In this document: positions 2,161 through 41,631 of the stretch, piece by piece
How positions within the stretch are numbered: position 1 is the stretch's first letter
How the letters are laid out: every line of letters starts with the position of its first letter
Program-made: the position numbers and the translations under genes
The notes under the pieces: generated by a model
Told to the model about the DNA's origin: nothing
Database searches by the model: none
The model's input: the letters and a program-made list of their open reading frames with translations, nothing else
DNA from: a virus
Taxonomy: Duplodnaviria > Heunggongvirae > Uroviricota > Caudoviricetes
IMG/VR virus record: IMGVR_UViG_3300035701_007101
Reading direction: 5' to 3' (one strand)
DNA: 64,000 nt

Positions 2161-2601
2161 ATGGATCAAACAGCAATTATAAAACAATGTCCAAAAAAAG
2201 ATAAAGATTCAAGACCAAGTAATGAACAGAAGTTTTGTTTATATACTAGTGATGGTTCTAGATTGCTTGGTCGACATCCTTCAAAAGAAAAAGCTAGAAA
2301 TCAAGAAAAAGCAATTCAAAAACATAAACATGGCAAAATAATTAAACTTGAATTTTCTAAATTAGCTGTTGACTGGTGGAATGATTTGACCATTAAAGAG
2401 CAAAGAGAGTATTTAAGAAATCATCCAAAATCAATTTTAAGAGTAAGAAAAAGAGATGTTCCTGTTGGATCACTCCAATACTATAATGGTAGATATAGAC
2501 TATTGACGCATGATAGAGGTTGGATTTATTTTGATCCTGATGAAAAAGATGAATTAAAAGAAGAAAAAGCTAAAACTGACAAATTTTTAAATAGGGAGTA
2601 A
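2161..2601 (+). CDS. Small hypothetical protein, copy 1 of a paralogous 'WNDLxIxEQRxYLxxHPKS' family
   Basis: ORF start abuts the previous stop (TAAATG). Shares the motif 'WNDLTIKEQREYLRNHPKS' and 'GRHPS' with ORF 12288..12494. Confidence 0.45.
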   Translation: MDQTAIIKQCPKKDKDSRPSNEQKFCLYTSDGSRLLGRHPSKEKARNQEKAIQKHKHGKIIKLEFSKLAVDWWNDLTIKEQREYLRNHPKSILRVRKRDVPVGSLQYYNGRYRLLTHDRGWIYFDPDEKDELKEEKAKTDKFLNRE

Positions 2602-2605
2602 CTAA

Positions 2606-5500: not shown

Positions 5501-6401
5501 ACTTTTAATTTATTATGGATGGTTAAGCGCGTTTAATTCTGGAGTTAATCAATGGAACAATGATTCAGTTGCTCATGATTTTGCAAAATATCAAATAATT
5601 GTTTTTGGTGATGGTATTGCAGATCCAAATCACAGTGATTATACTAATACAGTGTATGTAACTGCTAAAATTAAGCAATATAATCCAGAAACAAAAATAT
5701 TTGGATATGTTTCATCAAATCAAAATTATAGTTCATTTTGTGCAAAAGTAGATTTATTAGCTAATATATGTGTTGATGGTGTGTTCATGGATGAGTCTGG
5801 TTATGATTTTGGTGTCACAAGAGCTAACTTTAATCAAAAAGTCACATATATTAAGACAAAATTATATAGAGCATGTTTTGTAAATGCTTGGAATATTGAT
5901 CATGTGTTAGGTACCACTAATGATCCATCTTATCCAAATAGTGTTTATAATCCTGGATTAGCTGTTTCTAATTTAGAAATTGGTGATTGGTACACAGCTG
6001 AGTCATTTGTAGTAAATCCATCTTATCCAGGTGGATTTGCAACTGCTAGTGATTGGAAAACTAGAGGAGATAAAATAAAAAATTCTAGAAATACATATAG
6101 AATAAATGTTGCTGCTTCAGGTGTTATTGATAATAATGATATTAATGGTCAAAGTAAATCAGATTTTTCTTATCATGCAGCTTTAGGATATGAGTTTCAA
6201 GCACATGGAACTTCAGACATTAATTATGCAGCTAGTTCAGCTGCTGTGAAGATGTTTAATGATGCAATTAATGTTTATTGGAGAACAGGAACATCAATTG
6301 CTTGGACTAAATCAGGAAATATATATTATCGCAATGGGCAAAATCAGCAGCGCTTAAATTTAAATTTTAATACACAACAAAGTTATTTAACTACATATTA
6401 A
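5493..6401 (+). CDS. Hypothetical protein (possibly glycoside-hydrolase-like TIM-barrel; weak)
   Basis: ORF overlaps upstream gene by 8 nt (coupled). Asp/Glu-containing segments 'DGVFMDESGYDFG' reminiscent of GH-like families, not diagnostic. Confidence 0.4.
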   Translation: MLKLLIYYGWLSAFNSGVNQWNNDSVAHDFAKYQIIVFGDGIADPNHSDYTNTVYVTAKIKQYNPETKIFGYVSSNQNYSSFCAKVDLLANICVDGVFMDESGYDFGVTRANFNQKVTYIKTKLYRACFVNAWNIDHVLGTTNDPSYPNSVYNPGLAVSNLEIGDWYTAESFVVNPSYPGGFATASDWKTRGDKIKNSRNTYRINVAASGVIDNNDINGQSKSDFSYHAALGYEFQAHGTSDINYAASSAAVKMFNDAINVYWRTGTSIAWTKSGNIYYRNGQNQQRLNLNFNTQQSYLTTY

Positions 6402-6472
6402 AGTATATTTTTTCTTTATTAATCACAGATATAATAATATTAAAAAGAAAAACATTAAAACAAGGAGAATAT

Positions 6473-9400
6473 ATGTCAATTGATTTATCAGATCTGTTAG
6501 CAAAATTCTTACATGAACCTATTATAGTTACATCTACTAGAAGTCAACATGTAGATTTAGGAAAAACAGTTGCTTTAATTGTTGCAGCCATAGGTTGGCC
6601 ACAAATGACGTATCAATGGAAGAAAAATGGTGTTGTTATTACTGGCATTGATCATTGTGCATTATTACTTCTTAGGAAAGTATCTGTCATTGATGCTGGT
6701 GATTACACATGTACAGTGACAAACAAATATGGAAGTACTGTATCTCCTGTTTGTAGACTTGATGTTCATGCAATGCCGTTCGTACTTGTGCAGCCTGTTG
6801 CTGTTACTATCGATGAAGCAACTGCATTAACATTATCAGTTGTTGTAGCAGGATCATTACCAATATCATATCAATGGCAAAAGAATGGAATTGATATAAT
6901 TGGTGCAATATCTTCTACATATACAAAAGCTTCTTCAGAAGTTCAAGATACAGGCTTTTATTCATGTAAAGCTGTTAATCAATATGGACTTGTTACTAGC
7001 AAATCAGTTGCTGTTATAGTCAATCAAGTAGGTTTTGCTCCAAAAATTGATGTTCAACCTATAGGATCAAGCATTTTTGACGGTGGTAGTTTTTATTTAT
7101 CAGTTGTTGCATCTGGAACAATTCCGCTGTCATATCAATGGAAAAAGAATGGATCAATTATTACAGGAGCAATTGAAAATTTTTATGCTAAGAATGGTGC
7201 TGTAATGTCTGATTCTGGATCTTATACTTGTGTTGTTACTAATAACAATGGATCAGTTGAAAGCGTTGCTGCTGTTATATCAGTTGTAGGTGTTGCTCCA
7301 ATAATTGATGAACAACCTCAAGATGTTACTATTTATGACGGTGGAGACTTTTCTTTATCAGTCACAGTTCATGGAACAATTCCACTATCATATCAATGGA
7401 AGAAAAATGGTTCAATCATTGGTGGTGCAACAAGTGCAACATATATTAAAACTAATGCTGTAATGTCAGATTCTGGTTCTTATACTTGTGTTGTTACAAA
7501 TGTTATCGCATCTACTGAAACAATAGCTGTTGCTGTTGTAGTTCAAGGCGTAATTCCTGTAATTGACACTCAACCTCAGGATGTTACTATTTATGATGGT
7601 GGAGACTTTTCTTTATCAGTTACAGCTCATGGAACTTCTCCATTGTCATATCAATGGACAAAGAATAATGTTGATATTGGCGGTGCAACTAGTTCAACGT
7701 TTACTAAATCTCCGGCTGGAATGACTGACACTGCATCTTATGCTTGTATTGTGTCAAATATAGCTGGATCGACTTCAACTGATGAAGTTATTGTAACAGT
7801 TCAGGGCGTTGTTCCAATAATTGATGAACAACCACAGAATGTTACTATTTATGATGGTGGAAATTTTTCTTTATCAGTTACAGCTCATGGAACTTCTCCA
7901 TTGTCATATCAATGGAAAAAGAATAATATTGATATTGGTGGTGCAACTAATTCAACTTATTCTAAAGTTGGAGCGCTAATTAGTGATTCTGCACATTATG
8001 TTTGCGAAGTTTCAAATATTATTGGAACTACTAGAACTAATATTGCTGTTGTTACAGTTCAAGCTATTGTTCCGACGATTCAAGTACAGCCTAAAGATGT
8101 AACAATTGATGATAATGAAATTTTTACATTGACTATTGCTGCTACTGGAACGTTACCTTTATTGTATCAATGGAAGAAAAATGATATTGATATTCTGGGT
8201 GCAAATAGTGCGATATATTCTAAAGTTAGTGTCATGAGTGATTTAGGATCTTACACTTGTGTTGTTACAAATGCAGGAGGGTCTATAACTAGTGATGCCG
8301 CTGCAGTAGTAGTAGTAGGAGTTGCGGCTGAAGTTGTTAGCATTGAACCAGACAGTGTAGCAATTGTTGACGGTGAAAATTTTACTTTGACTGTTGCTGC
8401 TATAGGAACTCCTGTATTAACATATCAATGGAAGAAAGGTTTGTCAAATATTCCAGGTGCAACATTATCAGTCTATAATAAAGTTGGCGCTTTAATGACA
8501 GATTCAGGATCTTATACTTGTGTTGTTACAAATGATTATGGCACAGACACTAGTGCAGCTGTCATTGTGGCAGTAGCAGGTATTGCGCCAGTAATTGATG
8601 ATCAACCTCAGGGTGTTTCAATTGTTGACGGTGAAGATTTTACTTTATCAATTACAGCTCATGGAACAATTCCATTAGCATATCAATGGAAAAAAGGTGG
8701 TGTTGTTATTGAAGGAGCAACTAATTCAACTTATTCTAAAGTCTGCGCTTTAATAACAGATTCAGGATCTTATACTTGTGTTGTTACAAATGTAGTTGAT
8801 TCTATTACAAGCAGCGCAGCTATAGTGACTGTTGCAGGAATTGCTCCAGTAATTATGTCAATGACAGGTCCTCAAGGTAATGAAGTGTGGCAAGATATTG
8901 GAACAGCTTTTACGATAATTTTAGTTGCTGCAGGAACTGAACCGCTGTCTTATCAATGGAGAGTTGATTTTACAGGAACTGAAAATGATGATGGTTTAGG
9001 AATTAGAGATATTGTTGGAGCAATTGATACAGTTTATTCAGTAACTAATGCACAAAAAACTGTTTCAGGATTTTATTCTTGTAAAGTGACAAATGTATTT
9101 GGTGTGGCAACGAGTTATTCAATGCTAGTCAATATTGGTCAAGTACCAATGGTAATTAGCAATCCTGAAAATGTTACAGTTGATGAAAGACAATCTTTTC
9201 AGTTAGTAAGTCAAGCAAGAGGAGCATTTTTAAAGTTTCAATGGACAATAAATAGTTTACCAGTAGGCTCATTTGAATCAGTTACGCTTGATGGTCATGC
9301 GATTTTTACAAAACAAGCAGAAGTTTCAGATTTTGGTGTTTACAGTTGCAGATTCGTTAGTTGTTTAGAAAATGGCGATATTCCTGTAGATGCAAAATAT

Positions 9401-10624
9401 GCTTATAGTAAAGCTGTAATTGTATTAGTAACTGAAATTGGATTTGCTCCTGAAATTACTATTCAACCAGTCGGTGTTCAAATTCCTAAACCTGGTGTTG
9501 TAATTACTGGTGGTCAAACAGGCATTGCTGAAGTCGGTACTGTTCAACAAACAATAGCTATGTCTTCACTTGGTGATTATCAAACAATTTTTTCTAATAG
9601 TAACTATGCTCAGTTTTCATCAAATTTTGGAGCTACATGGGTAGCAAGACGTATTGGTCCATATTGGAATCAGTCTGTTAGTGTGTCTGGCAGTGGACAA
9701 TATCAGACGTCTTTTGCTACTGAAGGACGAGGACTGTATGTTTCAGCTAATTATGGTGTAAGTTGGGCGCTGAAAACAACAACTGAAGTAACGAATCCAT
9801 ATATTAGATCTAGTTCAATGGACAATTCTGGACAATATCAATTGGTATTGAATGAAATTTATGGTACTGCAGGAGCTTGGTTATCCAGAGATTATGGAAA
9901 TACTTGGACTAAAGTTGTAGCTCAAGGTGGGTGGGGTGCAACTGCTATATCTGCTAATGGTCAATATATGGCTGTAGCTTTAGCTGCTGTTGGATTTTGG
10001 AGGTCTACTGATTATGGCATAACTTGGACAAAACTTGTCAATTCTCCCTCATATAATGCGTACCAATTTAGAAGTCTTGCATTATCTTATGATGGAAGGA
10101 TTTGGTATTGGGTGGGTCAAAACAGTAATGTATTTGCATCTTCTGATTACGGTGCATCTTTTTATGTTCATTCAGCTTCACCGGCTGGTATAACGTGGTT
10201 ACGTCTTAGATGTTCTATTGATGGTAAAGTCATAGTTGGTGCTGCTGCAGGTCGTCCAATTTATTTTTCAAGAGATTATGGTGCAACATACAATATATTG
10301 CCAGGTTCTGAAGGTAAAGAATGGTCTGATATTGCAATATCAGCTGATGGTTCGAGAATAACTGGTGTAATGACAAATGCTAACATATATGTGTTTACTA
10401 TTTATGAAAGCCCGATTTCATTTACAGTCAGCTTAACTGTTATTGGAACTCCTCCATTATCATATCAATGGGAAAAAGAAGGAATAATTGTTCCTGATGC
10501 AACACAATATTTTTATTACAAGAATTCAGCTCAACCTTCTGATCTTGGTAATTACACTTGTGTTGTAACAAATAATTATGGTGAAATTGAAAGTGATATT
10601 GCAAGAGTTGAAATGGTTCCATAG
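6473..10624 (+). CDS. Giant surface/adhesin-like protein: about 13 tandem Ig-like (I-set-type) domains + BNR/Asp-box beta-propeller + terminal Ig domain
   Basis: 'SYQWKKNG...' followed by 'YTCVVTN..GS' recurs about every 90 aa, 13-14 times (I-set Ig signature). C-terminal region carries repeated Asp-box motifs S-x-D-x-G-x-T-W ('SRDYGNTWTKV','STDYGITWTKL','SANYGVSWAL','SSDYGASF','SRDYGATYN'). Strong RBS AAGGAGAATATATG. Ends with TAG followed by a terminator hairpin. Confidence 0.8.
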   Translation: MSIDLSDLLAKFLHEPIIVTSTRSQHVDLGKTVALIVAAIGWPQMTYQWKKNGVVITGIDHCALLLLRKVSVIDAGDYTCTVTNKYGSTVSPVCRLDVHAMPFVLVQPVAVTIDEATALTLSVVVAGSLPISYQWQKNGIDIIGAISSTYTKASSEVQDTGFYSCKAVNQYGLVTSKSVAVIVNQVGFAPKIDVQPIGSSIFDGGSFYLSVVASGTIPLSYQWKKNGSIITGAIENFYAKNGAVMSDSGSYTCVVTNNNGSVESVAAVISVVGVAPIIDEQPQDVTIYDGGDFSLSVTVHGTIPLSYQWKKNGSIIGGATSATYIKTNAVMSDSGSYTCVVTNVIASTETIAVAVVVQGVIPVIDTQPQDVTIYDGGDFSLSVTAHGTSPLSYQWTKNNVDIGGATSSTFTKSPAGMTDTASYACIVSNIAGSTSTDEVIVTVQGVVPIIDEQPQNVTIYDGGNFSLSVTAHGTSPLSYQWKKNNIDIGGATNSTYSKVGALISDSAHYVCEVSNIIGTTRTNIAVVTVQAIVPTIQVQPKDVTIDDNEIFTLTIAATGTLPLLYQWKKNDIDILGANSAIYSKVSVMSDLGSYTCVVTNAGGSITSDAAAVVVVGVAAEVVSIEPDSVAIVDGENFTLTVAAIGTPVLTYQWKKGLSNIPGATLSVYNKVGALMTDSGSYTCVVTNDYGTDTSAAVIVAVAGIAPVIDDQPQGVSIVDGEDFTLSITAHGTIPLAYQWKKGGVVIEGATNSTYSKVCALITDSGSYTCVVTNVVDSITSSAAIVTVAGIAPVIMSMTGPQGNEVWQDIGTAFTIILVAAGTEPLSYQWRVDFTGTENDDGLGIRDIVGAIDTVYSVTNAQKTVSGFYSCKVTNVFGVATSYSMLVNIGQVPMVISNPENVTVDERQSFQLVSQARGAFLKFQWTINSLPVGSFESVTLDGHAIFTKQAEVSDFGVYSCRFVSCLENGDIPVDAKYAYSKAVIVLVTEIGFAPEITIQPVGVQIPKPGVVITGGQTGIAEVGTVQQTIAMSSLGDYQTIFSNSNYAQFSSNFGATWVARRIGPYWNQSVSVSGSGQYQTSFATEGRGLYVSANYGVSWALKTTTEVTNPYIRSSSMDNSGQYQLVLNEIYGTAGAWLSRDYGNTWTKVVAQGGWGATAISANGQYMAVALAAVGFWRSTDYGITWTKLVNSPSYNAYQFRSLALSYDGRIWYWVGQNSNVFASSDYGASFYVHSASPAGITWLRLRCSIDGKVIVGAAAGRPIYFSRDYGATYNILPGSEGKEWSDIAISADGSRITGVMTNANIYVFTIYESPISFTVSLTVIGTPPLSYQWEKEGIIVPDATQYFYYKNSAQPSDLGNYTCVVTNNYGEIESDIARVEMVP

Positions 10625-12287: not shown

Positions 12288-12494
12288 ATGAAGCATTTAT
12301 CTGCAATTCAGACCGAATTTTTAAAAGAAGCTCGAAAGTGGAATGATTTGTCGATTGAGCAACAAAGAACTTATTTAAAGAAGCATCCAAAAAGTAAGAA
12401 AAAAATTAATGCAAAAGATTTTATGAAAGATTTTTCTCATGATGAACAAGTTATGTATTTAGGGCGACATCCAAGACTTAAAAAACATATTTAA
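12288..12494 (+). CDS. Small hypothetical protein, copy 2 of the 'HPKS' family
   Basis: 'RKWNDLSIEQQRTYLKKHPKSKKK' and 'GRHPRLKKH' parallel ORF 2161..2601. RBS AAAGGAAAAATAATG. Confidence 0.45.
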   Translation: MKHLSAIQTEFLKEARKWNDLSIEQQRTYLKKHPKSKKKINAKDFMKDFSHDEQVMYLGRHPRLKKHI

Positions 12495-12516
12495 TGTTGT
12501 AACATACATATTTGTA

Positions 12517-12545
12517 AAAAGGCTCATTTTTAAGAGCTTTTTTTA
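12517..12545 (+). terminator. Putative terminator hairpin
   Basis: AAGGCTC-atttttaa-GAGCTTT stem (one G-T pair) followed by a T run. Confidence 0.35.
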
Positions 12546-12582
12546 TGTAAAGTTGACGAGAATTTTTAGCTAAAATTATATT

Positions 12583-13524
12583 ATGACATATTTTACAATT
12601 GAACAAATTATTATTGAAAAATACATAAATGAATTAAGTGGCGATGCTTTTAAGACGTTGCTTAAAATAATTTATATTGCTAGAAGCAATAATGATGATA
12701 TTAATGTGCGCAATACTAAAATGCTTCAACGAATACTTGGTGTTAATTCAATTGATTCAACTAGTGTATTAAATGAATTAGTTAATTATGACGTTTTAAT
12801 TAAAAGAGAAAAACAAAATAAAATAACATATATCTTAAATAATAAAAAAATTCGTCAAGACAATCAGATATATTCAGAGAATAATGTGTTAAGACCGGCA
12901 AAAATAACTATATTTAGTGTGCAAGAGTCAAAAGTATTAAATGAAGTAGTTGATGAAATATCTGATGAAGTTATTAAGAAAAAAATGCGGCAAGTATTAG
13001 CAAGCGCTGATACTATTTTAATTGATAATTTGCTAAAGACAATTAGATTAATACAAAAGTATAATATTGAAAAAGAGCGAAGATTTTCATTTGCAATGCT
13101 TGCAAAATTTTTAGTAGATATATCTGTGTTTAATGTGCACCTTATAATGGATGTTTGTCAAAGGTATAATAATAATCCATCCATTGCTGGTTTACGAGGT
13201 TCTAGATATGTTTTGAGGATGGCTGAGGGTATTTCAAAAGAAGATCCAAGTTATGGAATAGATGAAAATTTTACTGTCGAAAATGAAAGACGACGACAAG
13301 AAGGTGAGATAAAATTTGCTCTAAAAGTAGTAAGAGGATTAGATATTGATGAAAGTGCAATTTATTTAAAATTAAAAAGAAACAATGTCGATGAATTAAA
13401 TAGATTGTGGCAGATCGGCGCTGACATATTAAGATTGCAACAAAAAGAAGATGAAATTTACTATGCATACAATTGGTTGAAACTTAAAGAAGTAAATAAT
13501 GAATCAAAAAAACAAATTTCTTGA
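12583..13524 (+). CDS. Hypothetical protein
   Basis: 313-aa ORF in the replication module, no motif recognised. Confidence 0.45.
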   Translation: MTYFTIEQIIIEKYINELSGDAFKTLLKIIYIARSNNDDINVRNTKMLQRILGVNSIDSTSVLNELVNYDVLIKREKQNKITYILNNKKIRQDNQIYSENNVLRPAKITIFSVQESKVLNEVVDEISDEVIKKKMRQVLASADTILIDNLLKTIRLIQKYNIEKERRFSFAMLAKFLVDISVFNVHLIMDVCQRYNNNPSIAGLRGSRYVLRMAEGISKEDPSYGIDENFTVENERRRQEGEIKFALKVVRGLDIDESAIYLKLKRNNVDELNRLWQIGADILRLQQKEDEIYYAYNWLKLKEVNNESKKQIS

Positions 13525-14227
13525 ACATTATTTTAGAATGTACGAGATGACAGAATATGATGGTACTCGATATCTTCTAAAAGATGAACAAAATGAAACT
13601 AAACGACACATGATTTTAGCAAATATTCCGGCTAATTATTATTCATATTCATTTACTGATGTTACTAATATTTGGAGTGATGATGTTTCAAATGATGAAG
13701 CCATACATGACTATACATTGTATTATGATAACCTTGAAGCTGCTAAAACTAATGGTACTGGATTATTTTTCTCTGGTGCTCATGGTTTGGTTAAGACTAC
13801 AGCAGCTGTTGTTGTATTAAAGAAAGCAATTTTACAAAAATTTACTGTGTATTTTATTTCAATGTCTGATTTAGTTGATTTTGTTACATCAGGATGGAAA
13901 GACTATAACTTAAAATTGAAATATCAATATATTGTCATGAATGTTGATTTTTTAGTAATTGATGATATTGGTCGAGATTACAAAATACAATCAAGTCAAT
14001 CAACTCAATTTTTAGACAAATTATTTGTTAGTAGATGCAATCAAAAGAAATCTACAATATTAACTTCTATGCACGACATAACATCTACATCAACTATCTT
14101 CACTGATTCATTAGTTACATTATTAAAGTCAAATTTAATTGAAATTAAATTGGTAGGCTCTGACATACGAGAGACTAAATCAAAATCTCTTATTGGTCAG
14201 TTAAAAATTGGTAAAAAAGGTGTCTAA
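13499..14227 (+). CDS. AAA+ helicase-loader-like protein (DnaC/IstB-like, degenerate P-loop)
   Basis: 'GLFFSGAHGLVKTTAAVVVL' (P-loop-like) and 'FLVIDDIGRD' (Walker B as in DnaC 'LLVLDDLG'). Sits directly upstream of a DnaB-like helicase with overlap. Confidence 0.4.
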   Translation: MNQKNKFLEHYFRMYEMTEYDGTRYLLKDEQNETKRHMILANIPANYYSYSFTDVTNIWSDDVSNDEAIHDYTLYYDNLEAAKTNGTGLFFSGAHGLVKTTAAVVVLKKAILQKFTVYFISMSDLVDFVTSGWKDYNLKLKYQYIVMNVDFLVIDDIGRDYKIQSSQSTQFLDKLFVSRCNQKKSTILTSMHDITSTSTIFTDSLVTLLKSNLIEIKLVGSDIRETKSKSLIGQLKIGKKGV

Positions 14228-15653
14228 AATGTTTGCGTCTATAAAAGGCGAAAATAAATTACTAAAGAGTCTAATTAGTCATGATACTATTGACCAGCAA
14301 ATTGCTATTAAAAATATTGAAAAGGTAATTAATAGTAATATATCACCTGAACATTTTACAACTGATTTTAGAGCATGGTTATTTTCTTCAATAATCTCAC
14401 ATTACTATTCATATTCTGCTGCTTTAACAATTGATCTTACTCATCAAAAAATAGTCAAAACATATAAAAAAGAACAGTCAATAAATGATGCAAACGCTTT
14501 ACTTGAAAAAGTTATTAATAGACTGTTTGATCAATTAGAACTAGAACCAACAATTGATGAATTAAAAAATTTACATCAATTAAGAAAAGTATTTGATGTA
14601 ACTCAAAGTCTATTGACAGACTTAAAAGCAATTAAAGAAGGCACTAAGGACGTAAATGCAACACCGTTAATTACTAAACTAGATAGTGCAATTGAACAGT
14701 TAAATAGTCAAAGCACTATGGAAAGAATAATTGAAGAAGACGCATTTCAAGACATTAATGGTGATATTGCATCAATACAAGACAGACACGATAATCCTGA
14801 AAAATATAAAGGTATAGATACTGGAATTGGGCCGTTAACATTAGCTACTGGTGGTTGGCAAGGCGGAGATCTTGTAACAGTAATTGGGCGAACAGGACAC
14901 GGCAAATCTATAGTTCTTTTAAATTTTGGATATTCTGCGTGGATTACTGGAGAAGATATTTTATATGCGACTATTGAAATGCCAATAGGTCAACAAAAAA
15001 GAAGATTACATTCTAGAATGACAGGTGTGCCTTATTTTAGAATGAAAAATGCAGATAAGTTGACTAATGAAGAATTGATTTATATTGAAAAAAAGATTAA
15101 GGACATTAAAAGTAAACATGACAATTCATTTGTAATATTGGATGCTCCTTCAGCTTGTAATGCTAATTTTATAAAAAAGAGAATTTATAATTATGAAAAA
15201 AGCACTGGCAAAAAAATTAAGCTTGTTATAGTTGATCCGATTTATTTAATGCAACCTAACGAACATAATGAAATGTCAAAAAAAGATCCTGTTGGAGCTA
15301 TTTCATGGGACCTTAAATTATTAGCTAGAGAATTAGATGTGCCTGTATTAACTGCAAATCAAATTAGTAGAGAAGGCAATAAAAGACATTTACAGGGTAG
15401 AGAGATAGATACCATGGATTCATCTAGTTCTGATAGATTAGGTCAAAATTCAGATATTATGTTAGGCATAATCTCTGATGATTTACAATGGTTAAAAATG
15501 ACTATTGTAAAATATAGAGATGGTAAAGGTCCAACATTATTTTTACGAAGAAAATTTGACGTAATGAAGGTAGAATATGATGTAGAATACAATCAGCATG
15601 ATGAAATAATCTCTCAAATTATGGGAACCAATAAAGAGGAAGAAAATGAGTGA
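14208..15653 (+). CDS. DnaB-family replicative helicase
   Basis: 'GGWQGGDLVTVIGRTGHGKSIVLLNFGYSAW' (Walker A), 'KLVIVDPIYLM' (Walker B), 'ELDVPVLTANQISREG' (DnaB H4 motif). Confidence 0.75.
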   Translation: MVKKVSKMFASIKGENKLLKSLISHDTIDQQIAIKNIEKVINSNISPEHFTTDFRAWLFSSIISHYYSYSAALTIDLTHQKIVKTYKKEQSINDANALLEKVINRLFDQLELEPTIDELKNLHQLRKVFDVTQSLLTDLKAIKEGTKDVNATPLITKLDSAIEQLNSQSTMERIIEEDAFQDINGDIASIQDRHDNPEKYKGIDTGIGPLTLATGGWQGGDLVTVIGRTGHGKSIVLLNFGYSAWITGEDILYATIEMPIGQQKRRLHSRMTGVPYFRMKNADKLTNEELIYIEKKIKDIKSKHDNSFVILDAPSACNANFIKKRIYNYEKSTGKKIKLVIVDPIYLMQPNEHNEMSKKDPVGAISWDLKLLARELDVPVLTANQISREGNKRHLQGREIDTMDSSSSDRLGQNSDIMLGIISDDLQWLKMTIVKYRDGKGPTLFLRRKFDVMKVEYDVEYNQHDEIISQIMGTNKEEENE

Positions 15654-15818: not shown

Positions 15819-16472
15819 ATGTCTACAAGTGTTATTGAAGAGTTGTATTATAAATTATACAATGCTGTGCTTCTTGGAAATATTAATGATTCAAGAATAT
15901 ATTTGGATTTGCTTAGAGATGAGTATGCTACGTGTGAAAAAGATTTTGAAATATTAAATGATGGCAGATTTGATCATTTACAACAATTAAGTATTGCAGT
16001 TGAACAAGGTCTAACTATAAAAAATTTCAATTATAAAGATGACTATGTTGATACTACTAATAAAGATGATGACCAGTTTATCACAGAAAAAGAATTAGTC
16101 GTTAGAATTTGCAAAGGTAATGAATTAAAAAAACTACTCAAGGCGTCTGACAACTTTTATATCTATAATATGGAGCATCCTACAAGATATGGCAAAATAG
16201 ATATTGTTGCTCAAGATAATTTAACAACTTATATTATTGAAACGAAAAAAAGTCATGCACATTATTCGGTCATTAGTCAGATTGATAAATATTTATTAGA
16301 TGTTAAATTGAAATTGAATTTAAAACATTACACTAAAGTTATTGGCATTGTAATAGCAAATGGCTATATTGGTAACGTGACTCAGGAATTAGTAAAACTT
16401 GGAGTGATACCAGTTAAATATATGATAATGAATGATGATTTAAAACTTAGTCTAATGATCAAGGAGATGTAA
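15819..16472 (+). CDS. Putative PD-(D/E)xK-fold nuclease-like protein
   Basis: 'GKIDIVAQD...TYIIETKK' fits the D...(D/E)xK arrangement. Weak. Confidence 0.35.
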   Translation: MSTSVIEELYYKLYNAVLLGNINDSRIYLDLLRDEYATCEKDFEILNDGRFDHLQQLSIAVEQGLTIKNFNYKDDYVDTTNKDDDQFITEKELVVRICKGNELKKLLKASDNFYIYNMEHPTRYGKIDIVAQDNLTTYIIETKKSHAHYSVISQIDKYLLDVKLKLNLKHYTKVIGIVIANGYIGNVTQELVKLGVIPVKYMIMNDDLKLSLMIKEM

Positions 16473-17770
16473 TGGAAATTAAATTAAAAAGACTAGCAAC
16501 ACCACATAAACTAAAATTTGTCGAAGATGCAGAAAGTGTAAAAAAACTTATTGATGAATGTTATGAAAAAGTAAAACCACAAATTATTGTAAATGGTTTT
16601 CGTAAAGGTAATGTACCTCGAGATGTAGCTGAAAAACAACCACATTTTGATAAATACAGAGTATATCAAACAATATTTGACATTTTATATAAAAAAGCAG
16701 TTGAACAACAAGGTCTTAAAATTGTTGATGCTAGTAATTTTGAAGTTATGGGTGCGTTTGAATATGGTGAATCATTGTCAATGCAAGCAACAGTTTATTT
16801 AAAGCCAACTGTGATAAAGTTTAATATTGATGATGTTAAAGTTTCAAGAGCTGATACAGTCATAACTCAGCAAATGGTTGACGATCAAATTAATGTATTG
16901 CAAAATACAAAAGCAATATTTACAAATGTTATTGATGTTGATTACAAGGCTAAAAAAGGTGATGTTCTTATAATTGACTTTGCAGGTAAATGTGAAGGAA
17001 AAGCATTTGCTGGAGGAACAGCTAATAATTTTAGGTATGTCATTGGTGAAACAAGATTTATTGAAGGCTTTGAAGAACAAATACTCAATATTAAACTGAA
17101 TGAGACAAATGTTGTTAAAGTGACATTTCCCGAAACATATCATGAAAAATCATTAAAAGGTAAGGCAGCTGAGTTTACAGTAACAGTACGAAAAATTGAC
17201 TCTAAAACTGTTAGATCAATTGAAGAAATGGCTGCTGCTGAGAATAAGTCTATTGAAGAATATAGAAAGTTTGTTTTTGATAAATTGGTTGAAGATTATA
17301 AGAAAATTGATGATGAACGATATGAGGCAGATGTTTTATCTCAGTGTGTTCTTATTGCTGAGATTCAACCAATACCAGATTCAATGGTAGAATATGAATT
17401 AGCAAATGAATGGAATCAATTGTTATATAGAATGAGTATGTCTGAAGAAGAATTTTTGAAAAAGAATAAGAGTGGTAAAGATGTATTTTATGCGCAAAAA
17501 AGATTGAGAGTCGAAAAAGCTCTTGAAATTAAGATGTTTTTAGATCATATTTGTGAAAAGTATAATATTACTGCGTCAGAAGAAGAAGTGCAGAAATTAT
17601 TTGACGACAGATTTACAAAGCTTAATAAAACTGAAGAAGAGAAAACTGAAATTAAAAATAATCTTAAGAAAAAACAAAATTATTCTGCAGGTGAAATGGC
17701 AGTTAAGCACGAAAAAGCAACGAAATTGTTAGTTAAATCAGTAAAAAATATTGACGATTATGCAAGCTGA
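16472..17770 (+). CDS. tig: Trigger factor-like ribosome-associated chaperone / PPIase
   Basis: N-terminal 'NGFRKGNVPRDVAEKQ' matches the trigger-factor ribosome-binding signature (GFRKGKVP). Central FKBP-type domain 'DFAGKCEGKAFAGGTANNFRYVIGETRFIEGFEEQILNIKLNETNVVKVTFPETYHEKSLKGKAAEFTVTV' matches the TF PPIase core. Length 432 aa as in bacterial Tig. Confidence 0.7.
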   Translation: MEIKLKRLATPHKLKFVEDAESVKKLIDECYEKVKPQIIVNGFRKGNVPRDVAEKQPHFDKYRVYQTIFDILYKKAVEQQGLKIVDASNFEVMGAFEYGESLSMQATVYLKPTVIKFNIDDVKVSRADTVITQQMVDDQINVLQNTKAIFTNVIDVDYKAKKGDVLIIDFAGKCEGKAFAGGTANNFRYVIGETRFIEGFEEQILNIKLNETNVVKVTFPETYHEKSLKGKAAEFTVTVRKIDSKTVRSIEEMAAAENKSIEEYRKFVFDKLVEDYKKIDDERYEADVLSQCVLIAEIQPIPDSMVEYELANEWNQLLYRMSMSEEEFLKKNKSGKDVFYAQKRLRVEKALEIKMFLDHICEKYNITASEEEVQKLFDDRFTKLNKTEEEKTEIKNNLKKKQNYSAGEMAVKHEKATKLLVKSVKNIDDYAS

Positions 17771-17801: not shown

Positions 17802-18137
17802 ATGCGTATATTGGTGCTTGATGATGATCAAATAAGATTGAGTAAATTTAAACACAAATATTTAAATGATGATGTAGATTGTGTTGAAACTTCAAAAGAC
17901 GCCATTAATAAACTTGACACTGAAAATTATGATTGCCTTTTTTTAGATCATGATCTCGGTGGTGAAGTTTATGTTGATTCAGGCGAAAACACTGGTTATG
18001 AAGTAGCTAAATGGCTTGCTGATAATCCTCAAAAACAACCAAAAATTATTTTCATACATAGTTTAAATCCTATTGGATCTGAAAACATGAAACAGTTGTT
18101 ACCCAGAGCTGTAAAAAAGACATTTGCATGGATATAA
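17802..18137 (+). CDS. Stand-alone response-regulator receiver (CheY-like REC) domain protein
   Basis: 'MRILVLDDD' acidic pocket, phospho-acceptor-like 'CLFLDHDLGGE', conserved Lys near the C-terminus. 111 aa with no output domain. Confidence 0.55.
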   Translation: MRILVLDDDQIRLSKFKHKYLNDDVDCVETSKDAINKLDTENYDCLFLDHDLGGEVYVDSGENTGYEVAKWLADNPQKQPKIIFIHSLNPIGSENMKQLLPRAVKKTFAWI

Positions 18138-18924
18138 AATGAAAAAACTTGATTTTAATCTATCTGCTTCTACAATAAATTATTTTTTTACATGTCCATG
18201 GGCATTTAAACAAGATAAAATTCTAAAAAGAGAAAAAATAAAACTATCAAATACAATTTTAGTTGTTGCACAAGCTTTTCATAAAATGCTTGCAGAGTTC
18301 TATGATCAAAAGAAATTTAGAACTTATGATTTATTCAAAAATTGGGATAAGTGTTTTGATGTAGAAACTAAAGTGCAAAAAGCTCAAAATTTGCAAGGGT
18401 TATCTTATGCAAAAATGTCAGGTTATACTCTTATAAAAAATTGGGTTGCAATGGCCAAAGAAAATGATTGGCTACATGAAGCAATTGGTGCTGAATTAGA
18501 ATTCATGCAACCATATAAGAATGATAGATTTGAAATTAATTTTCACGGTTTTATGGATTTAGTTATTGAAGTCAATAATAAGATATATGTGCTAGATTGG
18601 AAAACAGGAAAACATAATAAAGAAAAATATAGATTGCAAGCTTTGACTTATAGTTGGGCTCTTTGTAAACAATTCAATATGGTAGATGAATGCATAAGAT
18701 TCATTCATCCTTCTAAGAAAATGAATACGATTATTGATGTATATGTTAAGGATGAAGATTATTTAATAGTCAAAGATAAAGTTGAAACAATTTTCAACGC
18801 TATTGAAAAAGATGATTTTAAGAAAAACGCAGATAAAAGTCATTGTAAGTATTGTAATTGGACTGAATGTGAACATAATGTCAATGATAACTTAAAAGAG
18901 TATATAAAAAATAATGAAGATTAG
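18124..18924 (+). CDS. Cas4/RecB-family PD-(D/E)xK nuclease with C-terminal Cys cluster
   Basis: 'MDLVIEVNNKIYVLDWKTGK' (D..ExK). Cys at the N-terminus (CPWAF) plus 'CKYCNWTEC' suggest a 4Cys Fe-S cluster as in Cas4/AddB. Overlaps the REC gene by 14 nt. Confidence 0.6.
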   Translation: MHGYKMKKLDFNLSASTINYFFTCPWAFKQDKILKREKIKLSNTILVVAQAFHKMLAEFYDQKKFRTYDLFKNWDKCFDVETKVQKAQNLQGLSYAKMSGYTLIKNWVAMAKENDWLHEAIGAELEFMQPYKNDRFEINFHGFMDLVIEVNNKIYVLDWKTGKHNKEKYRLQALTYSWALCKQFNMVDECIRFIHPSKKMNTIIDVYVKDEDYLIVKDKVETIFNAIEKDDFKKNADKSHCKYCNWTECEHNVNDNLKEYIKNNED

Positions 18925-18976: not shown

Positions 18977-20950
18977 ATGAAAATTATGAAAGTTACTGAA
19001 AAGTCAAAGAATCAAGAGATTGGTCGATTAGAAGGCGATATACGGTTGCATAGGTATTTGTATTATAATAAAGAACCTCGAATATCTGATCAAGCTTATG
19101 ATGCTTTAGTTGAACGTCTAAGGCAATTAGCACCAAATAGCGAAGTACTCAAAGAAGTTGGTGCACCGGCAGATGAACATTCTGGATGGCAAAAAGCTAC
19201 GCATTCTATGATAATGGCATCGTTAGCAAATGCTATGACAATTGATGATTATAATAAATGGGTTCATACTACAAATGTCATTGGGAAAGTTTTAGTTTTA
19301 GAAGATAAACTTGATGGTTCATCAATTGAGTTGAATTATGAAAACGGTGAATTAACACAAGCAATTACTCGTGGTGATAGCAGAATCGGTGAAGATATTA
19401 CTCTCAACGTTAAAAAAATGAAATTTGTTCAATCCACTTTAAAGGAAAAAATTACCGTCAGCTTACGCGGTGAAATAATGTTGTTTAACGAAGAGTTTGA
19501 AGAAATCAATACATTAGTGGAAAAACCTTTTGCAAATCCAAGAAATGCAGCAAATGGCATAGCAAAACGATTTGATGGGAAATTTTGTGATAAGTTATGC
19601 ATTGTACTGTATGATATGATTTCGCCTAATGTTACATTTTCGTATGAAACTGAAAAATTAGATTACATGGCTAAAGCTCTTGATTTAGTAACTATTAATT
19701 ATAAATTAGTTACTCCTCAAGAAGTCGTTAAAGTTCGAGAGCAATATACAAAAACTGATAGAGCAAATTTACCATATAATATTGATGGCCTTGTTATTAA
19801 AATAAACAGTATTCAACGACAAAAAGACCTTGGCCGTCATCCCAATGGTGATCCTAAAGGTCATGTTGCTTTCAAATTTGATGCAAGAGGCGTTGCTACT
19901 ACTATTTTAGATTGCATTGCTGAAGTTGGTAGGACAGGAGTAATTACACCAAATGCTGTTTTAGATCCTATTAATATTGATGGATCGATTGTAAAAGCTG
20001 CAACATTACACAATTATGATGAAATTGCTCGATTAGGTGTCGGTATTGGTGATACAGTTGTCGTAGTAAAATCGGGGGAGATAATTCCCAAAGTGATCGA
20101 AGTTATTAAACATGTAGGTAATAAGATTTTACCACCTACGCAATGTCCTGCTTGTGGAGGACCAGTTGTTAAAGATGGTGACGGTGCTCATCTTTATTGT
20201 GACAATGATAATTGTGTTGGTAAGGAATTCAGAAAATTACGTCATTTTACAGATGTTTTAAAGAAACGAATGAGTTTGACTGATATTGGTCATAGTACCG
20301 TTGAGCAATTATTTGAAAAAGGTTTTATAAAGGATCCTGCTGATTTTTATACATTAACAATGACAAAAATTGCAAGTTTAGATAGATCGGGCGAAAAGTC
20401 TGCTAAGAAAATAGTTGATGGTTTTGAACGTTGTAAAGAAATGGACGTTGTTACTTTTTTAATGGGACTTGCAATACCTACATTAGGTGAAACTATGGCT
20501 GAAACTATTACTGATGAATATGATTTATTTGCATTAATGGAAGAAGTTACAGAAACAGATTTGTCAAAAATATCTGGTATTGGTCTTTCTCGTGCTCATG
20601 ACATTCTTGAAGGATTATCTCAACGTAAAGAGTTGATTGAAAAATTGATGCAAGTTGGTGTTAAAATTAAGAAATCTGGTGATGTGAAACTTGAGTCAAC
20701 TAAATTACAAGATAAGTCATTTCAAGTAACAGGACCAATTACGAAAATAAATCCAAAAACAAATAAATCATATAAACGCGAAGAATGGTATGATTTTGTA
20801 AAAGCTAATGGCGGAGAGATTAAACGAGTGAACAAGGAATTAATGTACCTTATAGCTAATAGGTCAAGTGGAAATAAGCTATCCAAGGCCTCTAGTATGG
20901 GGATTAAAGTAATATCTGAGGATGACTTTTGGAAAATGATTGACGATTAA
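18977..20950 (+). CDS. ligA: NAD+-dependent DNA ligase
   Basis: Adenylation motif 'EDKLDGSSIEL' (KxDG), Zn-finger 'CPACGGPV...C..C', HhH region, C-terminal BRCT-like domain. 657 aa. Confidence 0.85.
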   Translation: MKIMKVTEKSKNQEIGRLEGDIRLHRYLYYNKEPRISDQAYDALVERLRQLAPNSEVLKEVGAPADEHSGWQKATHSMIMASLANAMTIDDYNKWVHTTNVIGKVLVLEDKLDGSSIELNYENGELTQAITRGDSRIGEDITLNVKKMKFVQSTLKEKITVSLRGEIMLFNEEFEEINTLVEKPFANPRNAANGIAKRFDGKFCDKLCIVLYDMISPNVTFSYETEKLDYMAKALDLVTINYKLVTPQEVVKVREQYTKTDRANLPYNIDGLVIKINSIQRQKDLGRHPNGDPKGHVAFKFDARGVATTILDCIAEVGRTGVITPNAVLDPINIDGSIVKAATLHNYDEIARLGVGIGDTVVVVKSGEIIPKVIEVIKHVGNKILPPTQCPACGGPVVKDGDGAHLYCDNDNCVGKEFRKLRHFTDVLKKRMSLTDIGHSTVEQLFEKGFIKDPADFYTLTMTKIASLDRSGEKSAKKIVDGFERCKEMDVVTFLMGLAIPTLGETMAETITDEYDLFALMEEVTETDLSKISGIGLSRAHDILEGLSQRKELIEKLMQVGVKIKKSGDVKLESTKLQDKSFQVTGPITKINPKTNKSYKREEWYDFVKANGGEIKRVNKELMYLIANRSSGNKLSKASSMGIKVISEDDFWKMIDD

Positions 20951-23586: not shown

Positions 23587-24753
23587 ATGAAAGCAATTTA
23601 TGCATTTTCGGGTGATCCAATAACATTTGGTCACATTGATATTATAGAAAGAGCTGCTAAGGTTTTTACAAAAGTGTTAGTTTGTATTGGCAGTAATCCA
23701 GATAAAAAGTATATGTTTACACTTGAACAAAGATTGCAAATGGCCCAAGATGCATTGTCGTCAATTAAAAATGTTGACGTCAAATCTTTTTCAGGATTGC
23801 TTGTTGACTTTGCTTTTGAGCAAAACATTTCAGTTATAATAAAAGGTGTTAGAAATACTACAGATTTTGAATATGAAAATACTCTTCATGCTGTAGGCGA
23901 AAGTCAAAAATTAGGTATTGAAACATTTATATTGTTTGCAAAACCACAATTGGCTCATGTTAGCTCTAGTACAGTTAAGTCAATTCAAAAAGAACATGGC
24001 TTTATTCATGAATATGTTACATTGAATGTTAAAGAAGCTTTAGAGAAGCAGATGTCAAAACAGCTTATTATTGGTGTGACTGGTGAAATTGCTGCTGGAA
24101 AATCGTATGTAACTGATGCATTAGTTAGTTTGCTGGATAAGTCAAAAATTGAAGCTCATAATATTGATTTAGATATTATTGCACATGAAATATTAGGTAG
24201 TTTAAAATTGCCTCAATATGTTGAAGTTAGACACAAAATATCTGCTAGATTTGGTGAAACCATTAAGGATCTTTATGATTCTATTAATAGAAAAAAATTA
24301 GGAGCAATAGTGTTTAAGGATTCAAATGCTCTTAAAGATTTAAATGACATAATGAGAGATTCAATACTTGTAAGAATTAAAAGAGAATTAAATAACAAAG
24401 AAGGCATTATCTTTTTGAATGCTGCTTTACTTGTAGAAGCAGGTATGACAGATTTATGTAATAATAATGTGATTTTAGTTAAGTGTGACAAAGTTGTTCA
24501 GAGATCACGTCTTTACAAACGAGGCCTTTCAACTGTTCAATTAAATAAACGATTAAAATCTCAATATTCTTATGATGAAAAGAAAGCAGTTCTTGCTGAG
24601 AGAATAAGAGAACATAACAAATATACAGGTAATATATTTATTGTAGATACTTCAAAAAATGACTCTGACATTATAAATACTGCTAAATTATTATCAAATT
24701 TGCAAAGCGGTGATTCTAAAGGATTGTGGAAAAACAAATTTTTGACTTTATAA
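23587..24753 (+). CDS. Bifunctional phosphopantetheine adenylyltransferase / dephospho-CoA kinase (CoaD-CoaE fusion)
   Basis: N-terminal 'KAIYAFSGDPITFGHIDIIERA' is the PPAT (CoaD) signature (GTFDPIT.GH..I.ERA). C-terminal half has the P-loop 'IIGVTGEIAAGKSYV' and 'NIDLDIIAHE' typical of DPCK (CoaE). Confidence 0.7.
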   Translation: MKAIYAFSGDPITFGHIDIIERAAKVFTKVLVCIGSNPDKKYMFTLEQRLQMAQDALSSIKNVDVKSFSGLLVDFAFEQNISVIIKGVRNTTDFEYENTLHAVGESQKLGIETFILFAKPQLAHVSSSTVKSIQKEHGFIHEYVTLNVKEALEKQMSKQLIIGVTGEIAAGKSYVTDALVSLLDKSKIEAHNIDLDIIAHEILGSLKLPQYVEVRHKISARFGETIKDLYDSINRKKLGAIVFKDSNALKDLNDIMRDSILVRIKRELNNKEGIIFLNAALLVEAGMTDLCNNNVILVKCDKVVQRSRLYKRGLSTVQLNKRLKSQYSYDEKKAVLAERIREHNKYTGNIFIVDTSKNDSDIINTAKLLSNLQSGDSKGLWKNKFLTL

Positions 24754-24824
24754 CCCTCTATAACTCAGTGGTAGAGTGGCGTTCTCTAAAAATGCTGTCA
24801 TCAGTTCAAATCTGATTAGAGGGA
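24754..24824 (+). tRNA. Suppressor tRNA, anticodon CUA (reads UAG amber)
   Basis: Manual cloverleaf fold. Acceptor CCCTCTA/TAGAGGG (7 bp), U8, D-stem ACTC/GAGT with loop AGTGGTA, anticodon stem GCGTT/AATGC, loop C-U-CUA-A-A (anticodon at 24786-24788), variable 4 nt, T-arm ATCAG-TTCAAAT-CTGAT, discriminator A. No encoded CCA. Confidence 0.8.
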
Positions 24825-32839: not shown

Positions 32840-33136
32840 TGAAAAGTAATAATTATTTTATAATTTCTAAAATAATACACGGTAGTGATTATCGGAAGTG
32901 CTCTTGGAGTTGTCTAGTTGTAAATAGAAACGTTGAAGAGAGAAGTTACTTTTGTAACGATCAATAGTAGAAATCGCTAGGACAATGAAGTTACATTAGA
33001 CACAAATGTAGCTTCATTATGTCATTATCATAGAATCACATCTGCTAAGCTATGATATGACGTAGATATTTCAAACATTCACAAATCATTGAAATTATTT
33101 CAATTGTTAAGGAGTTACATGTCAACGTAAAATATA

Positions 33137-40488: not shown

Positions 40489-41631
40489 ATGTATAAATGC
40501 AATGATTGTAAATTAGATTTTAAAAATCGATCACAATTAGCAAATCATTTTAGATGGAAACATAAACAATGTTTAATTTTCAAATGTAATAAATGCAACA
40601 AAGAAATAACAGATAAAAGCGGTTTGACGATTCATGAAAAATTTTGTACAGGTGTTAAAGAAAAGAAAAACAATATTTGTCCAAAATGTAACTTTACAAT
40701 TAAAACAAACTATAAGAAACATGTTGTTTCATGTAATGGGTTAGGTCCTCGTCGATTAAGAACAAAACATCGCGAGAGAGTTGTTTTAACAAAAGAAAAT
40801 ATTGAAATAATTAGAAAACAATATGATGATAATGTGCCATTAAAAATTATTAGACAGCAAAATAAGTTTTCAAAATTACAAGTTAGACATGCATTAAAAG
40901 GATATAAGAAGCGATCAAAGTCAGACGTTATTAAAAGAAGTCACAAAGAAGGTAGAATGTGCAGACTGCAATTTCACGAATCTTTTGCTGAAAAGTTTTT
41001 TAATGACTTTTTACAAAAATCAGGATATAAATTAGGATTGGATTATATTCGTGAATATAGAGTTTCTTATTATCGAATTGATTTCTTTTTTCAAAATTTG
41101 AATATAGCAATAGAAGTAGATGGATCACAACATTATACATATAATCATCAAATAGAAATTGATAAAAGAAAAGATCAATTATTGAATAATCTTGGTATTA
41201 AAGTAATAAGGTTACCTTGGAAAGTGGTTTGTAATGAGTCAAAAAATACATTAAATGAGGTACTAGATATTATTAAAAACAAAAATGTTGATGAATTTAA
41301 TAATAAACAGAAAATTAAATTAGCAGATTTATTAAAAAAACGAAAAGAAACAAAGAAAAAGCAAAAACAAAGAAAGAAAAATTTGCCAAAAAAATACATT
41401 GAAAAATTAATAATTGCATTAAATAAATGCATTGTATATAAAACATATATGAAGCGCATGAATGATTTAAACAATGTTGATTTAAAAAAATGGGGAACTA
41501 TTTCTGAGCTTTCAAATTTATGGAATGTTTCTCATACTCAGGTTAGACGATATATTGAAAAACATTGTTTGTTAGAAAAATCAAAGACGGTGTGGCAGAG
41601 TTGGTACATGCTACGGTCTGCAAAACCGTAA
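40489..41631 (+). CDS. C2H2 zinc-finger + DUF559/Vsr-like (PD-(D/E)xK) endonuclease-domain protein; candidate tRNA-associated homing-type endonuclease
   Basis: Three C2H2-like fingers ('YKCNDCKLDFKNRSQLANHFRWKH','FKCNKCNKEITDKSGLTIHEKFC','CPKCNF...HVVSC'). 'YRIDFFFQNLNIAIEVDGSQH...LGIKVIRLPW' matches the DUF559 pattern. The 3' end overlaps tRNA-Cys by 46 nt. Confidence 0.5.
   Translation: MYKCNDCKLDFKNRSQLANHFRWKHKQCLIFKCNKCNKEITDKSGLTIHEKFCTGVKEKKNNICPKCNFTIKTNYKKHVVSCNGLGPRRLRTKHRERVVLTKENIEIIRKQYDDNVPLKIIRQQNKFSKLQVRHALKGYKKRSKSDVIKRSHKEGRMCRLQFHESFAEKFFNDFLQKSGYKLGLDYIREYRVSYYRIDFFFQNLNIAIEVDGSQHYTYNHQIEIDKRKDQLLNNLGIKVIRLPWKVVCNESKNTLNEVLDIIKNKNVDEFNNKQKIKLADLLKKRKETKKKQKQRKKNLPKKYIEKLIIALNKCIVYKTYMKRMNDLNNVDLKKWGTISELSNLWNVSHTQVRRYIEKHCLLEKSKTVWQSWYMLRSAKP

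Follow-up and report, generated by a model that had tools for sequence, protein, structure and literature searches.

A trigger factor gene in the replication module of a predicted huge tailed phage

Does a tailed phage carry its own trigger factor (TF, the product of tig), and what would such a copy do? The question is raised by an open reading frame (ORF) in a 64,000-nucleotide stretch of DNA from the IMG/VR virus record IMGVR_UViG_3300035701_007101 (Caudoviricetes). The whole of this stretch is called the window here, and coordinates given without a locus prefix are positions in it. An earlier note, made from the letters of the sequence without database searches, had called the ORF at 16472-17770 (+) a phage-encoded TF because of its docking signature GFRKGNVP, its FKBP-like core, the order of these elements and the total length. 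It had further proposed that the phage uses the protein to fold its own very large proteins or to remodel host ribosomes. We conclude that the ORF is a full-length TF by every sequence and fold criterion tried, and that it is probably a functional TF of a huge tailed phage that acts as a co-translational chaperone on host ribosomes.

Identity and constraint of the protein

The ORF encodes 432 aa, a length equal to that of E. coli TF, and contains the peptide NGFRKGNVPRD. The Pfam domains Trigger_N, FKBP_C and Trigger_C were matched in this order, each of them above the Pfam gathering score, and the NCBIfam equivalog model TIGR00115 'tig' was matched with 239.8 bits (cut-off 180.2) over profile positions 4-409 of 410. 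The signature, core, order and length on which the TF call was originally based were thus all correct, and the domain-profile search that had been suggested as a check on the call did not refute it. In PHROGs, the protein matched the unannotated family phrog_26774 (6.5e-48). A phmmer search of the PDB sequences retrieved E. coli TF (1W26/2VRH) with an E-value of 7.8e-26 for residues 20-393. The identity to bacterial TFs is only 21-34%.

An AlphaFold2 model of Tig, built from a 68-sequence alignment, had a mean pLDDT of 90.8 and a pTM of 0.70. In keeping with the elongated TF fold (N 'tail', PPIase 'head' and C-terminal 'arms'), the best Foldseek match of this model in the PDB was 2vrh_A, which is E. 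coli TF on the translating ribosome (E 1.6e-22, 432 columns, with a TM score of only 0.54). The next matches were to 1w26_A (E 1.9e-22; 427-432 columns for these two entries) and thereafter to TFs from Thermotoga, Vibrio and chloroplasts.

A word-indexed protein search returned 24 clusters that form a clade (identity of 42-100%, 342-932 bits), below which the scores dropped to 158 bits. This clade was monophyletic in 100 of 100 neighbour-joining (NJ) bootstraps and is set apart by a stem of 0.53, the longest internal branch of the tree. To compare functional residues, 22 members of the clade and 96 cellular TFs were aligned with E. coli TF by MAFFT. All clade members have the docking-loop residues G, R, K, G and P, and 21 of the 22 also have F; every cellular TF has G, F, R and G, and P occurs in 95 and K in 78 of the 96 sequences. 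Position 47 (E. coli K48) is Lys in 92 of the 96 cellular TFs but in no member of the clade, where His (10 members) and Asn (9 members) are found. In the FKBP pocket, no clade member deviates at F179, F200, Y223 or F235, and 21 of the 22 have I197 (E. coli F177, F198, Y221, F233 and I195, respectively).

The net charge at pH 7 also differs, being -3 for the phage Tig as compared to -23 for E. coli TF. For the clade it is -6.7 +/- 3.3 versus -29.8 +/- 9.4 for the 96 cellular TFs, a shift that is seen in all three domains, with the limitation that the sequences are related and the samples not independent. The low charge, in combination with His or Asn in place of the docking-loop Lys, suggests an altered ribosome affinity and/or client preference. 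Nei-Gojobori estimates of dN/dS against an 81%-identical relative were 0.135 overall, and 0.135, 0.108 and 0.149 for the N, PPIase (peptidyl-prolyl isomerase) and C domains. Purifying selection maintains the whole three-domain protein.

Residence on a phage genome

The composition of tig (GC 29.3%, GC3 15.7%) matches the window means (30.2 +/- 2.7% and 18.8 +/- 4.0%, respectively). Neither clpP nor clpX is present beside tig in the window or in any of the clade loci; in Lachnospiraceae, tig is followed by clpP-clpX. Clade-specific peptide patterns were found in none of the 185,579 species-representative genomes of GTDB. The match in composition, together with a gene order that is kept at 49-59% and again at 29-32% Tig identity (see below), argues that tig is a long-standing resident of the phage rather than a recent capture.

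Two cellular sources were considered and rejected. Lachnospiraceae provided the nearest cellular TFs in a genome scan, but an identity of about 34% is an unreliable signal of a donor or host. An nr entry named 'trigger factor [Nitrosarchaeum sp.]' would have suggested an archaeal TF. However, the genes on its contig (L006) are arranged as in the phage window, namely FtsK, a 956-aa orphan, helicase, DnaC, DnaB, NucS-like, Tig, PD-(D/E)XK and a radical-SAM/glycosyltransferase fusion, and the entry is a case of mis-binning. To our knowledge, archaea have no TF. A second contig (L112) of the same metagenome-assembled genome (MAG) carries the giant-protein module described below. L006 and L112 correspond to JAUSEY010000618.1 and JAUSEY010000114.1 of GCA_030650065.1, so that at least two contigs of the phage lineage are present in that MAG.

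The nature of the element was examined from the sequences that adjoin and resemble the window. The source sequence is 135 kb long, and relatives reach 416-424 kb. Locus L110 (JGI contig Ga0373627_0000389, found by exact-protein look-up) is 100% identical to window positions 1-7546, a 7.5-kb overlap. The genes of L110 that precede the window encode, in this order, a 1875-aa protein with Ig repeats of the ASH/HYDIN type, ORFs of 144, 154 and 496 aa, an 1181-aa protein and a 2147-aa protein. The 1181-aa protein, 9-12 kb upstream of the window, matches phrog_6 'baseplate wedge subunit' at 3.9e-24, and the 2147-aa giant protein has Fn3_assoc/CHB_HEX_C domains. The run of giant proteins at L110:1-16444 is probably a baseplate and fibre module, and its order is kept in L112. 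The '1383-aa Ig/BNR protein' to which the earlier note had drawn attention does exist at 6473-10624, with about nine Ig_3/I-set domains and a faint BNR match.

At least 10 related contigs in IMG/VR are whole-contig uncultivated virus genomes (UViGs) in the range of 47-416 kb, for example of 416,029, 329,800, 128,327, 126,451 and 112,971 bp. The 416-kb relative (Ga0209777_10000009) was independently assembled by ENA at 415,903 bp, and independent assemblies (JGI, ENA, Logan) show the same Tig context. The window itself encodes an FtsK-like ATPase, a 964-aa orphan, the nine-Ig protein, a DEAD helicase, DnaC-like and DnaB proteins, Tig, cREC, a PD-(D/E)XK nuclease and an NAD ligase. It further contains a CoaD-CoaE fusion, PolX, six tRNAs, the radical-SAM/glycosyltransferase fusion, an AAA ATPase, RecA/UvsX, an SSB-like protein and a split, intein-bearing DnaE. 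Additional genes in the relatives encode ThyX, NrdD, RNR, dCTP deaminase, RuvC, SbcD and RtcB. Such a gene content, with DnaE, RecA/UvsX, SSB, ThyA/ThyX, NrdD, RuvC and a tRNA array, is typical of a large virulent phage.

What counts against this identification is the outcome of searches for capsid, portal and terminase genes in the roughly 100 kb of sequence that could be read: none was found, and the window, loci L001-L024 and 47 extra ORFs of relatives gave DNA- and nucleotide-metabolism families only. The virion evidence therefore comes from the baseplate and Ig proteins plus the IMG/VR classification. The missing virion genes, the FtsK/SpoIIIE ATPase, the known presence of TF on megaplasmids and the relative in a 'Nitrosarchaeum' MAG would all suit a megaplasmid or another large extrachromosomal element of the 'Hodor' type, or host DNA brought in by mis-assembly or mis-binning. 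We consider this explanation very improbable and largely refuted by the baseplate-wedge homologue, the Hoc/tail-type Ig protein and the whole-contig IMG/VR calls of 47-416 kb. Moreover, the surroundings of Tig showed no SecYEG, sortase or conjugation genes, the independent assemblies agree and the composition is phage-like. The lack of clpP/clpX, the absence of the clade from the GTDB species representatives and the phage gene order of the 'archaeal' contig also speak against it. We conclude that the element is most likely a huge tailed phage, of which the capsid, portal and terminase genes would lie outside the sequence reached. The term 'phage-encoded' is likewise supported by the virion-type proteins, the whole-contig relatives and the lack of an adjacent clpP-clpX.

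Several other searches gave no match: megablast of 12 kb around tig against the INPHARED phages, single-protein scans of IMG/VR with Tig, FtsK or the giant protein, and a metagenome scan with a NusG-like protein. The window's own contig was likewise not found in IMG/VR. Alignment queries, in contrast to single proteins, did find relatives in IMG/VR.

Gene context, distribution and proposed role

The features in and around tig are listed in Table 1. The start codon of tig (ATG, 16472-16474) overlaps the stop codon of the preceding ORF (TAA, 16470-16472) as TAATG. In combination with the Shine-Dalgarno sequence, this overlap suggests translational coupling of tig within a polycistronic unit. A scan for promoters and terminators performed no better than on shuffled sequences, and no terminator-like sites above background were found between the genes.

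Table 1. Features of the tig region and of a candidate client in the window.
Feature	Position	Strand	Evidence and remarks
1383-aa Ig-repeat protein (I-set/Ig_3 x9), virion-surface type; candidate TF client	6473..10624	+	Pfam; phrog_3995 tail 6e-229; phrog_4069 Hoc-like head-decoration 6e-109
DnaC-like helicase loader	13499..14227	+	IstB_IS21 1.6e-10, phrog_50; upstream partner, syntenic in all relatives
DnaB-like replicative helicase	14208..15653	+	DnaB_C 6.7e-29, phrog_19 1.6e-53; conserved upstream partner
217-aa NucS_C-like ORF	15819..16472	+	No Pfam match itself; homologues in relatives with PF01939 NucS_C, 51-63% identical
Shine-Dalgarno AAGGAG	16461..16466	+	5 nt before tig ATG; read directly
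tig, phage trigger factor	16472..17770	+	ORF of 432 aa plus stop codon; TIGR00115, three Pfam domains, AlphaFold2 model, Foldseek, dN/dS
Trigger_N ribosome-binding domain, residues 1-142	16472..16897	+	Pfam PF05697, 4.3e-19
Ribosome (uL23) docking signature G42-F43-R44-K45-G46-N47-V48-P49	16595..16618	+	Aligned to E. coli G43-P50
FKBP-type PPIase domain (FKBP_C), residues 159-239	16946..17188	+	Pfam PF00254, 2.3e-13
Trigger_C domain (substrate-cradle arms), residues 260-421	17249..17734	+	Pfam PF05698, 8.3e-15; all-helical in model
cREC_REC receiver-domain protein (cyclic-phosphate-processing receiver)	17802..18137	+	PF20274, 1.7e-19; adjoins Tig in close relatives only
PD-(D/E)XK / Cas4-like exonuclease	18124..18924	+	phrog_1218, phrog_69; PDDEXK_1 and Cas_Cas4 in relatives; conserved downstream partner
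NAD-dependent DNA ligase	18977..20950	+	DNA_ligase_aden 5.3e-47 and related domains; end of conserved module

Relatives with 49-59% identity in Tig (66-69% in DnaB and 69-74% in DnaC) keep the order DnaC-like, DnaB, small ORF, NucS-like, Tig and PD-(D/E)XK, followed later by the NAD ligase. The order DEAD helicase, ORF, DnaC-like, DnaB, Tig recurs in five more distant IMG/VR loci (L115 and L117-L120; GC 26-32%), the proteins of which are 33-38% (DnaB) and 29-32% (Tig) identical to those of the window, and in several of these loci the start of Tig abuts or overlaps the stop of DnaB. In two further loci, L121 and L122, the TF gene is located two genes upstream of DnaE. Based on these gene orders, TF is a recurrent and ancient component of the replication modules of huge phages.

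An exhaustive profile search for TF relatives covered 1.84 billion representatives and revealed a graded series below the core clade, with P0204 at 419 bits and P0205-P0222 at 316-236 bits. When IMG/VR was scanned with the proteins of this series, UViGs of 43-424 kb with additional TF genes were identified. The wider group was defined, in an NJ tree of 101 sequences, as the smallest clade containing the core clade and five phage-type TFs from IMG/VR. Its 33 tips have a mean charge of -8.0 and Lys at the docking position in a single tip, compared with -29.4 and Lys in 56 of 68 tips outside the group. The 33-tip clade was recovered in only 38 of 60 NJ bootstraps, so that a single origin of the phage-type TFs is no more than suggested. 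The TFs of L121 and L122 (IMGVR_UViG_3300010413_002075 and 3300042731_004037) have a cellular-like charge of -21 and K/R in the docking loop, and are encoded upstream of DnaE without clpP/clpX; they may represent an independent acquisition by phages.

The conservation of the docking loop, the PPIase pocket and the cradle arms suggests that the phage protein does what TF does. According to the proposed mechanism, Tig would be made together with the replication genes, so that the ribosomes would be loaded with phage TF before late synthesis. It would bind the exit site of the host 50S subunit (uL23) through the conserved docking loop and cradle the nascent phage polypeptides, thereby supplementing or displacing host TF, and slowly folding multi-domain products would be shielded from misfolding. 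Candidate clients are the giant virion proteins with Ig or Fn3 repeats (1181, 1383, 1875 and 2147 aa) and large enzymes. The family of the 2147-aa giant protein (P0154-P0178) occurs on the same contigs as Tig, beside further giant proteins (1181 and 1875 aa). This co-conservation would be compatible with either of the roles first proposed, the folding of giant proteins or the remodelling of ribosomes.

Several observations weigh against a co-translational chaperone for giant clients. Ribosome binding, PPIase activity and chaperone activity are deduced from conservation. The docking loop has lost a Lys that is present in nearly all cellular TFs, and the effect of this loss could be a weaker rather than a tuned binding to the ribosome. 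Since TF is already abundant in bacterial hosts, the selective benefit of a second copy is not explained. Finally, the genes that adjoin tig encode replication proteins and not giant structural proteins, and the link to large clients is one of co-occurrence in the same genome only.

The location of tig next to the helicase genes could instead mean that the main site of action of the phage TF is away from the ribosome, where it would serve the replisome (for example the DnaB hexamer and its loader) or other complexes as a holdase or assembly chaperone. Consistent with such a role, the order DnaC-DnaB-Tig is kept at 33-38% DnaB identity, the start of Tig often abuts the stop of DnaB, and in a third lineage TF is two genes upstream of DnaE. 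Known activities of TF include the binding of folded proteins and the promotion of assembly, as in the complex of Thermotoga TF with ribosomal protein S7 (PDB 3gty/3gu0), and 3gty/3gu0 were among the fold matches of the Tig model. An off-ribosome role needs no docking motif, yet the motif is invariant under strong purifying selection. In addition, linkage in phage operons often mirrors timing and not physical interaction, and we know of no role of TF in replication. Thus, we regard a mainly off-ribosome function as unlikely.

Another explanation is that the phage TF serves as a competitive takeover factor, which would occupy uL23 and displace host TF, possibly also the signal recognition particle or nascent-chain enzymes, and in this way disturb the host or evade a response. 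The idea in the earlier note that the protein 'remodels host ribosomes' is of this type. Phages are known to attack the same interface, as T4 ModB modifies Arg45 of TF, and the change from K to H/N in the docking loop and the changes in surface charge could alter the competition for binding. However, the constraint on the PPIase pocket and on the C-terminal cradle is as strong as that on the N domain (0.108 and 0.149 versus 0.135), which speaks for a complete chaperone and not a mere plug. We consider a takeover factor of this kind quite improbable.

The co-translational chaperone thus remains the preferred interpretation. A more far-reaching scenario, which we put forward tentatively and with some doubt, is that the ancestor of a wide range of huge phages with genomes of up to about 420 kb acquired TF in a single ancient event. 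The protein would now be charge-neutralised, altered in its docking loop and locked to the helicase genes, and would either take over the ribosome exit from host TF or double as an assembly chaperone for the replisome or the virion. If true, the phage takeover of the translation apparatus would extend to the control of co-translational folding, a layer that had not been recognised before. Huge phages carry tRNAs, ribosomal proteins and many other translation-related genes, but no phage control has so far been described for co-translational folding at the exit tunnel, the step that follows directly on peptide-bond formation. The conservation of TF under purifying selection across deep lineages of huge phages suggests that these phages, with many proteins of 1,000-2,100 aa, may be limited by folding capacity or by the occupancy of uL23. 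As natural variants with a low charge and a changed docking loop, these TFs should be useful for studies of TF-ribosome affinity and client choice.

Other features, database records and known systems

The lineage displays several other features. A gene for an amber-suppressor tRNA with the anticodon CUA (ARAGORN: tRNA-Pyl) is located at 24754-24824 (+). Recoding of TAG within the window was considered and rejected, since TAG ends 8 of the 53 ORFs and no ORFs become joined when TAG is read as a sense codon; stop-codon recoding of late genes elsewhere in the genome is possible. Immediately upstream of this tRNA, at 23587-24753 (+), a CTP_transf_like domain (phosphopantetheine adenylyltransferase-like) is fused to CoaE (dephospho-CoA kinase), covering the last two steps of CoA synthesis, and the fusion is conserved in the 81% relative. 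The tRNA cluster also contains a C2H2 zinc-finger protein with a DUF559/Vsr-like endonuclease domain (40489-41631, +), which is likely to be a homing endonuclease and has homologues scattered in the relatives. The 1090-aa glycosyltransferase mentioned in the earlier note was confirmed as a fusion of a radical-SAM and a GT1 glycosyltransferase domain (45499-48771, -), and is 57% identical in the 'Nitrosarchaeum'-binned relative.

The gene for DnaE (Pol III alpha) occurs as two ORFs, a PHP/N-terminal one of 614 aa and a C-terminal one of 1028 aa with an intein (58074-61160 and 63001-64000, both on the minus strand; L023:8079-9923). An RNA ligase gene (62141-62923) and two small ORFs lie between the two halves, and the split is conserved in the relatives. 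The lineage also has an RNA-repair and maintenance kit consisting of RNA ligase, RtcB, Ro60/TROVE, a CCA-adding enzyme and a tRNA array (L002:3500-4840; L006:17969-19363; L004:17982-19304). In the 126-kb relative, Tig is flanked on both sides by IS200/IS605-type elements with a Y1 transposase and a TnpB/Cas12f-like TNB (L004:8620-9669 and 12396-13813). A stretch of 95 nt at 32872-32966 is 96.8% alike to L020:20124-20217, where the near-identical contig Ga0373627_0000389 ceases to be collinear with the window, and could represent a repeat or a strain rearrangement.

Tig is a plain member of a very well-known family, and IMG labels several of the clade copies 'trigger factor'; what is new is the phage setting and the consistent lineage-specific features. 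Full-text literature searches identified no paper that describes a phage-encoded TF, and BFVD contained no structure matching the Tig model at E <= 0.001. A set of 2,416 Southern Ocean viral genomes had been explicitly checked for TF and contained none (PMC8407431). In tblastn searches with Tig against phages, all matches were at or below 31% identity, and the GenBank 'phage' tig records that we checked were rejected as phage TFs because their bacterial context identifies them as host DNA. In L107 (CAKLQH020000005.1, 'Acinetobacter phage MD-2021a'), tig-clpP-clpX is accompanied by leuA, metX and a TonB receptor gene, L108 (MT835503.1) has tig-clpP-clpX and L109 (OR844993.1) has tig-clpX, the latter two being flagged UNVERIFIED. 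The matches among plasmids were mostly in Mb-sized records (some of 0.1-0.8 Mb) with a cellular-type tig of at most 31% identity. The statement that TF is rarely reported in phages thus agrees with the literature, the structure database and the records checked. The analysis also exposes database errors: the nr entry 'trigger factor [Nitrosarchaeum sp.]' derives from a mis-binned phage contig, and several GenBank 'phage' tig records are host DNA.

Compared with bacterial TF (TIGR00115; 1W26/2VRH), the phage Tig has the same length of 432 aa, the same order of the N, PPIase and C domains, the docking signature, the FKBP pocket and the fold. It differs by its placement in a separate clade on a long stem, at 21-34% identity, and by its context, which is a replication module rather than tig-clpP-clpX. 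Furthermore, bacterial TF is strongly acidic (about -30) with Lys at E. coli position 48, whereas the phage proteins have a charge of about -7 and His or Asn. Other phages are known to make folding machines of the host type for the folding of their own proteins, such as the GroES-like co-chaperonin gp31 of T4 and the GroEL-like chaperonin of Pseudomonas phage EL. These act post-translationally, whereas TF acts co-translationally at the ribosome exit.

The 'Hodor' conjugative megaplasmids of gut bacteria carry TF together with SecY/SecG/SecE and a class B sortase, as well as giant repeat proteins, and their authors propose chaperoning of giant secreted proteins (PMC12934698). The two systems are alike in that a TF copy is present on a very large mobile element with giant repeat proteins. 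They differ in that the phage Tig has DnaB on one side and a nuclease on the other, in a tailed phage known from environmental metagenomes, and no Sec or sortase domains were found in any of the precomputed or scanned Pfam lists of the loci. ModB of T4 attaches ADP-ribose to Arg45 in the docking loop of host TF (PMC3014915), so that the interface between TF and the ribosome is a known phage target. Whereas the Alt/ModB system of T4 modifies the host TF at the TF-uL23 interface, the lineage described here would encode a replacement or an extra TF.

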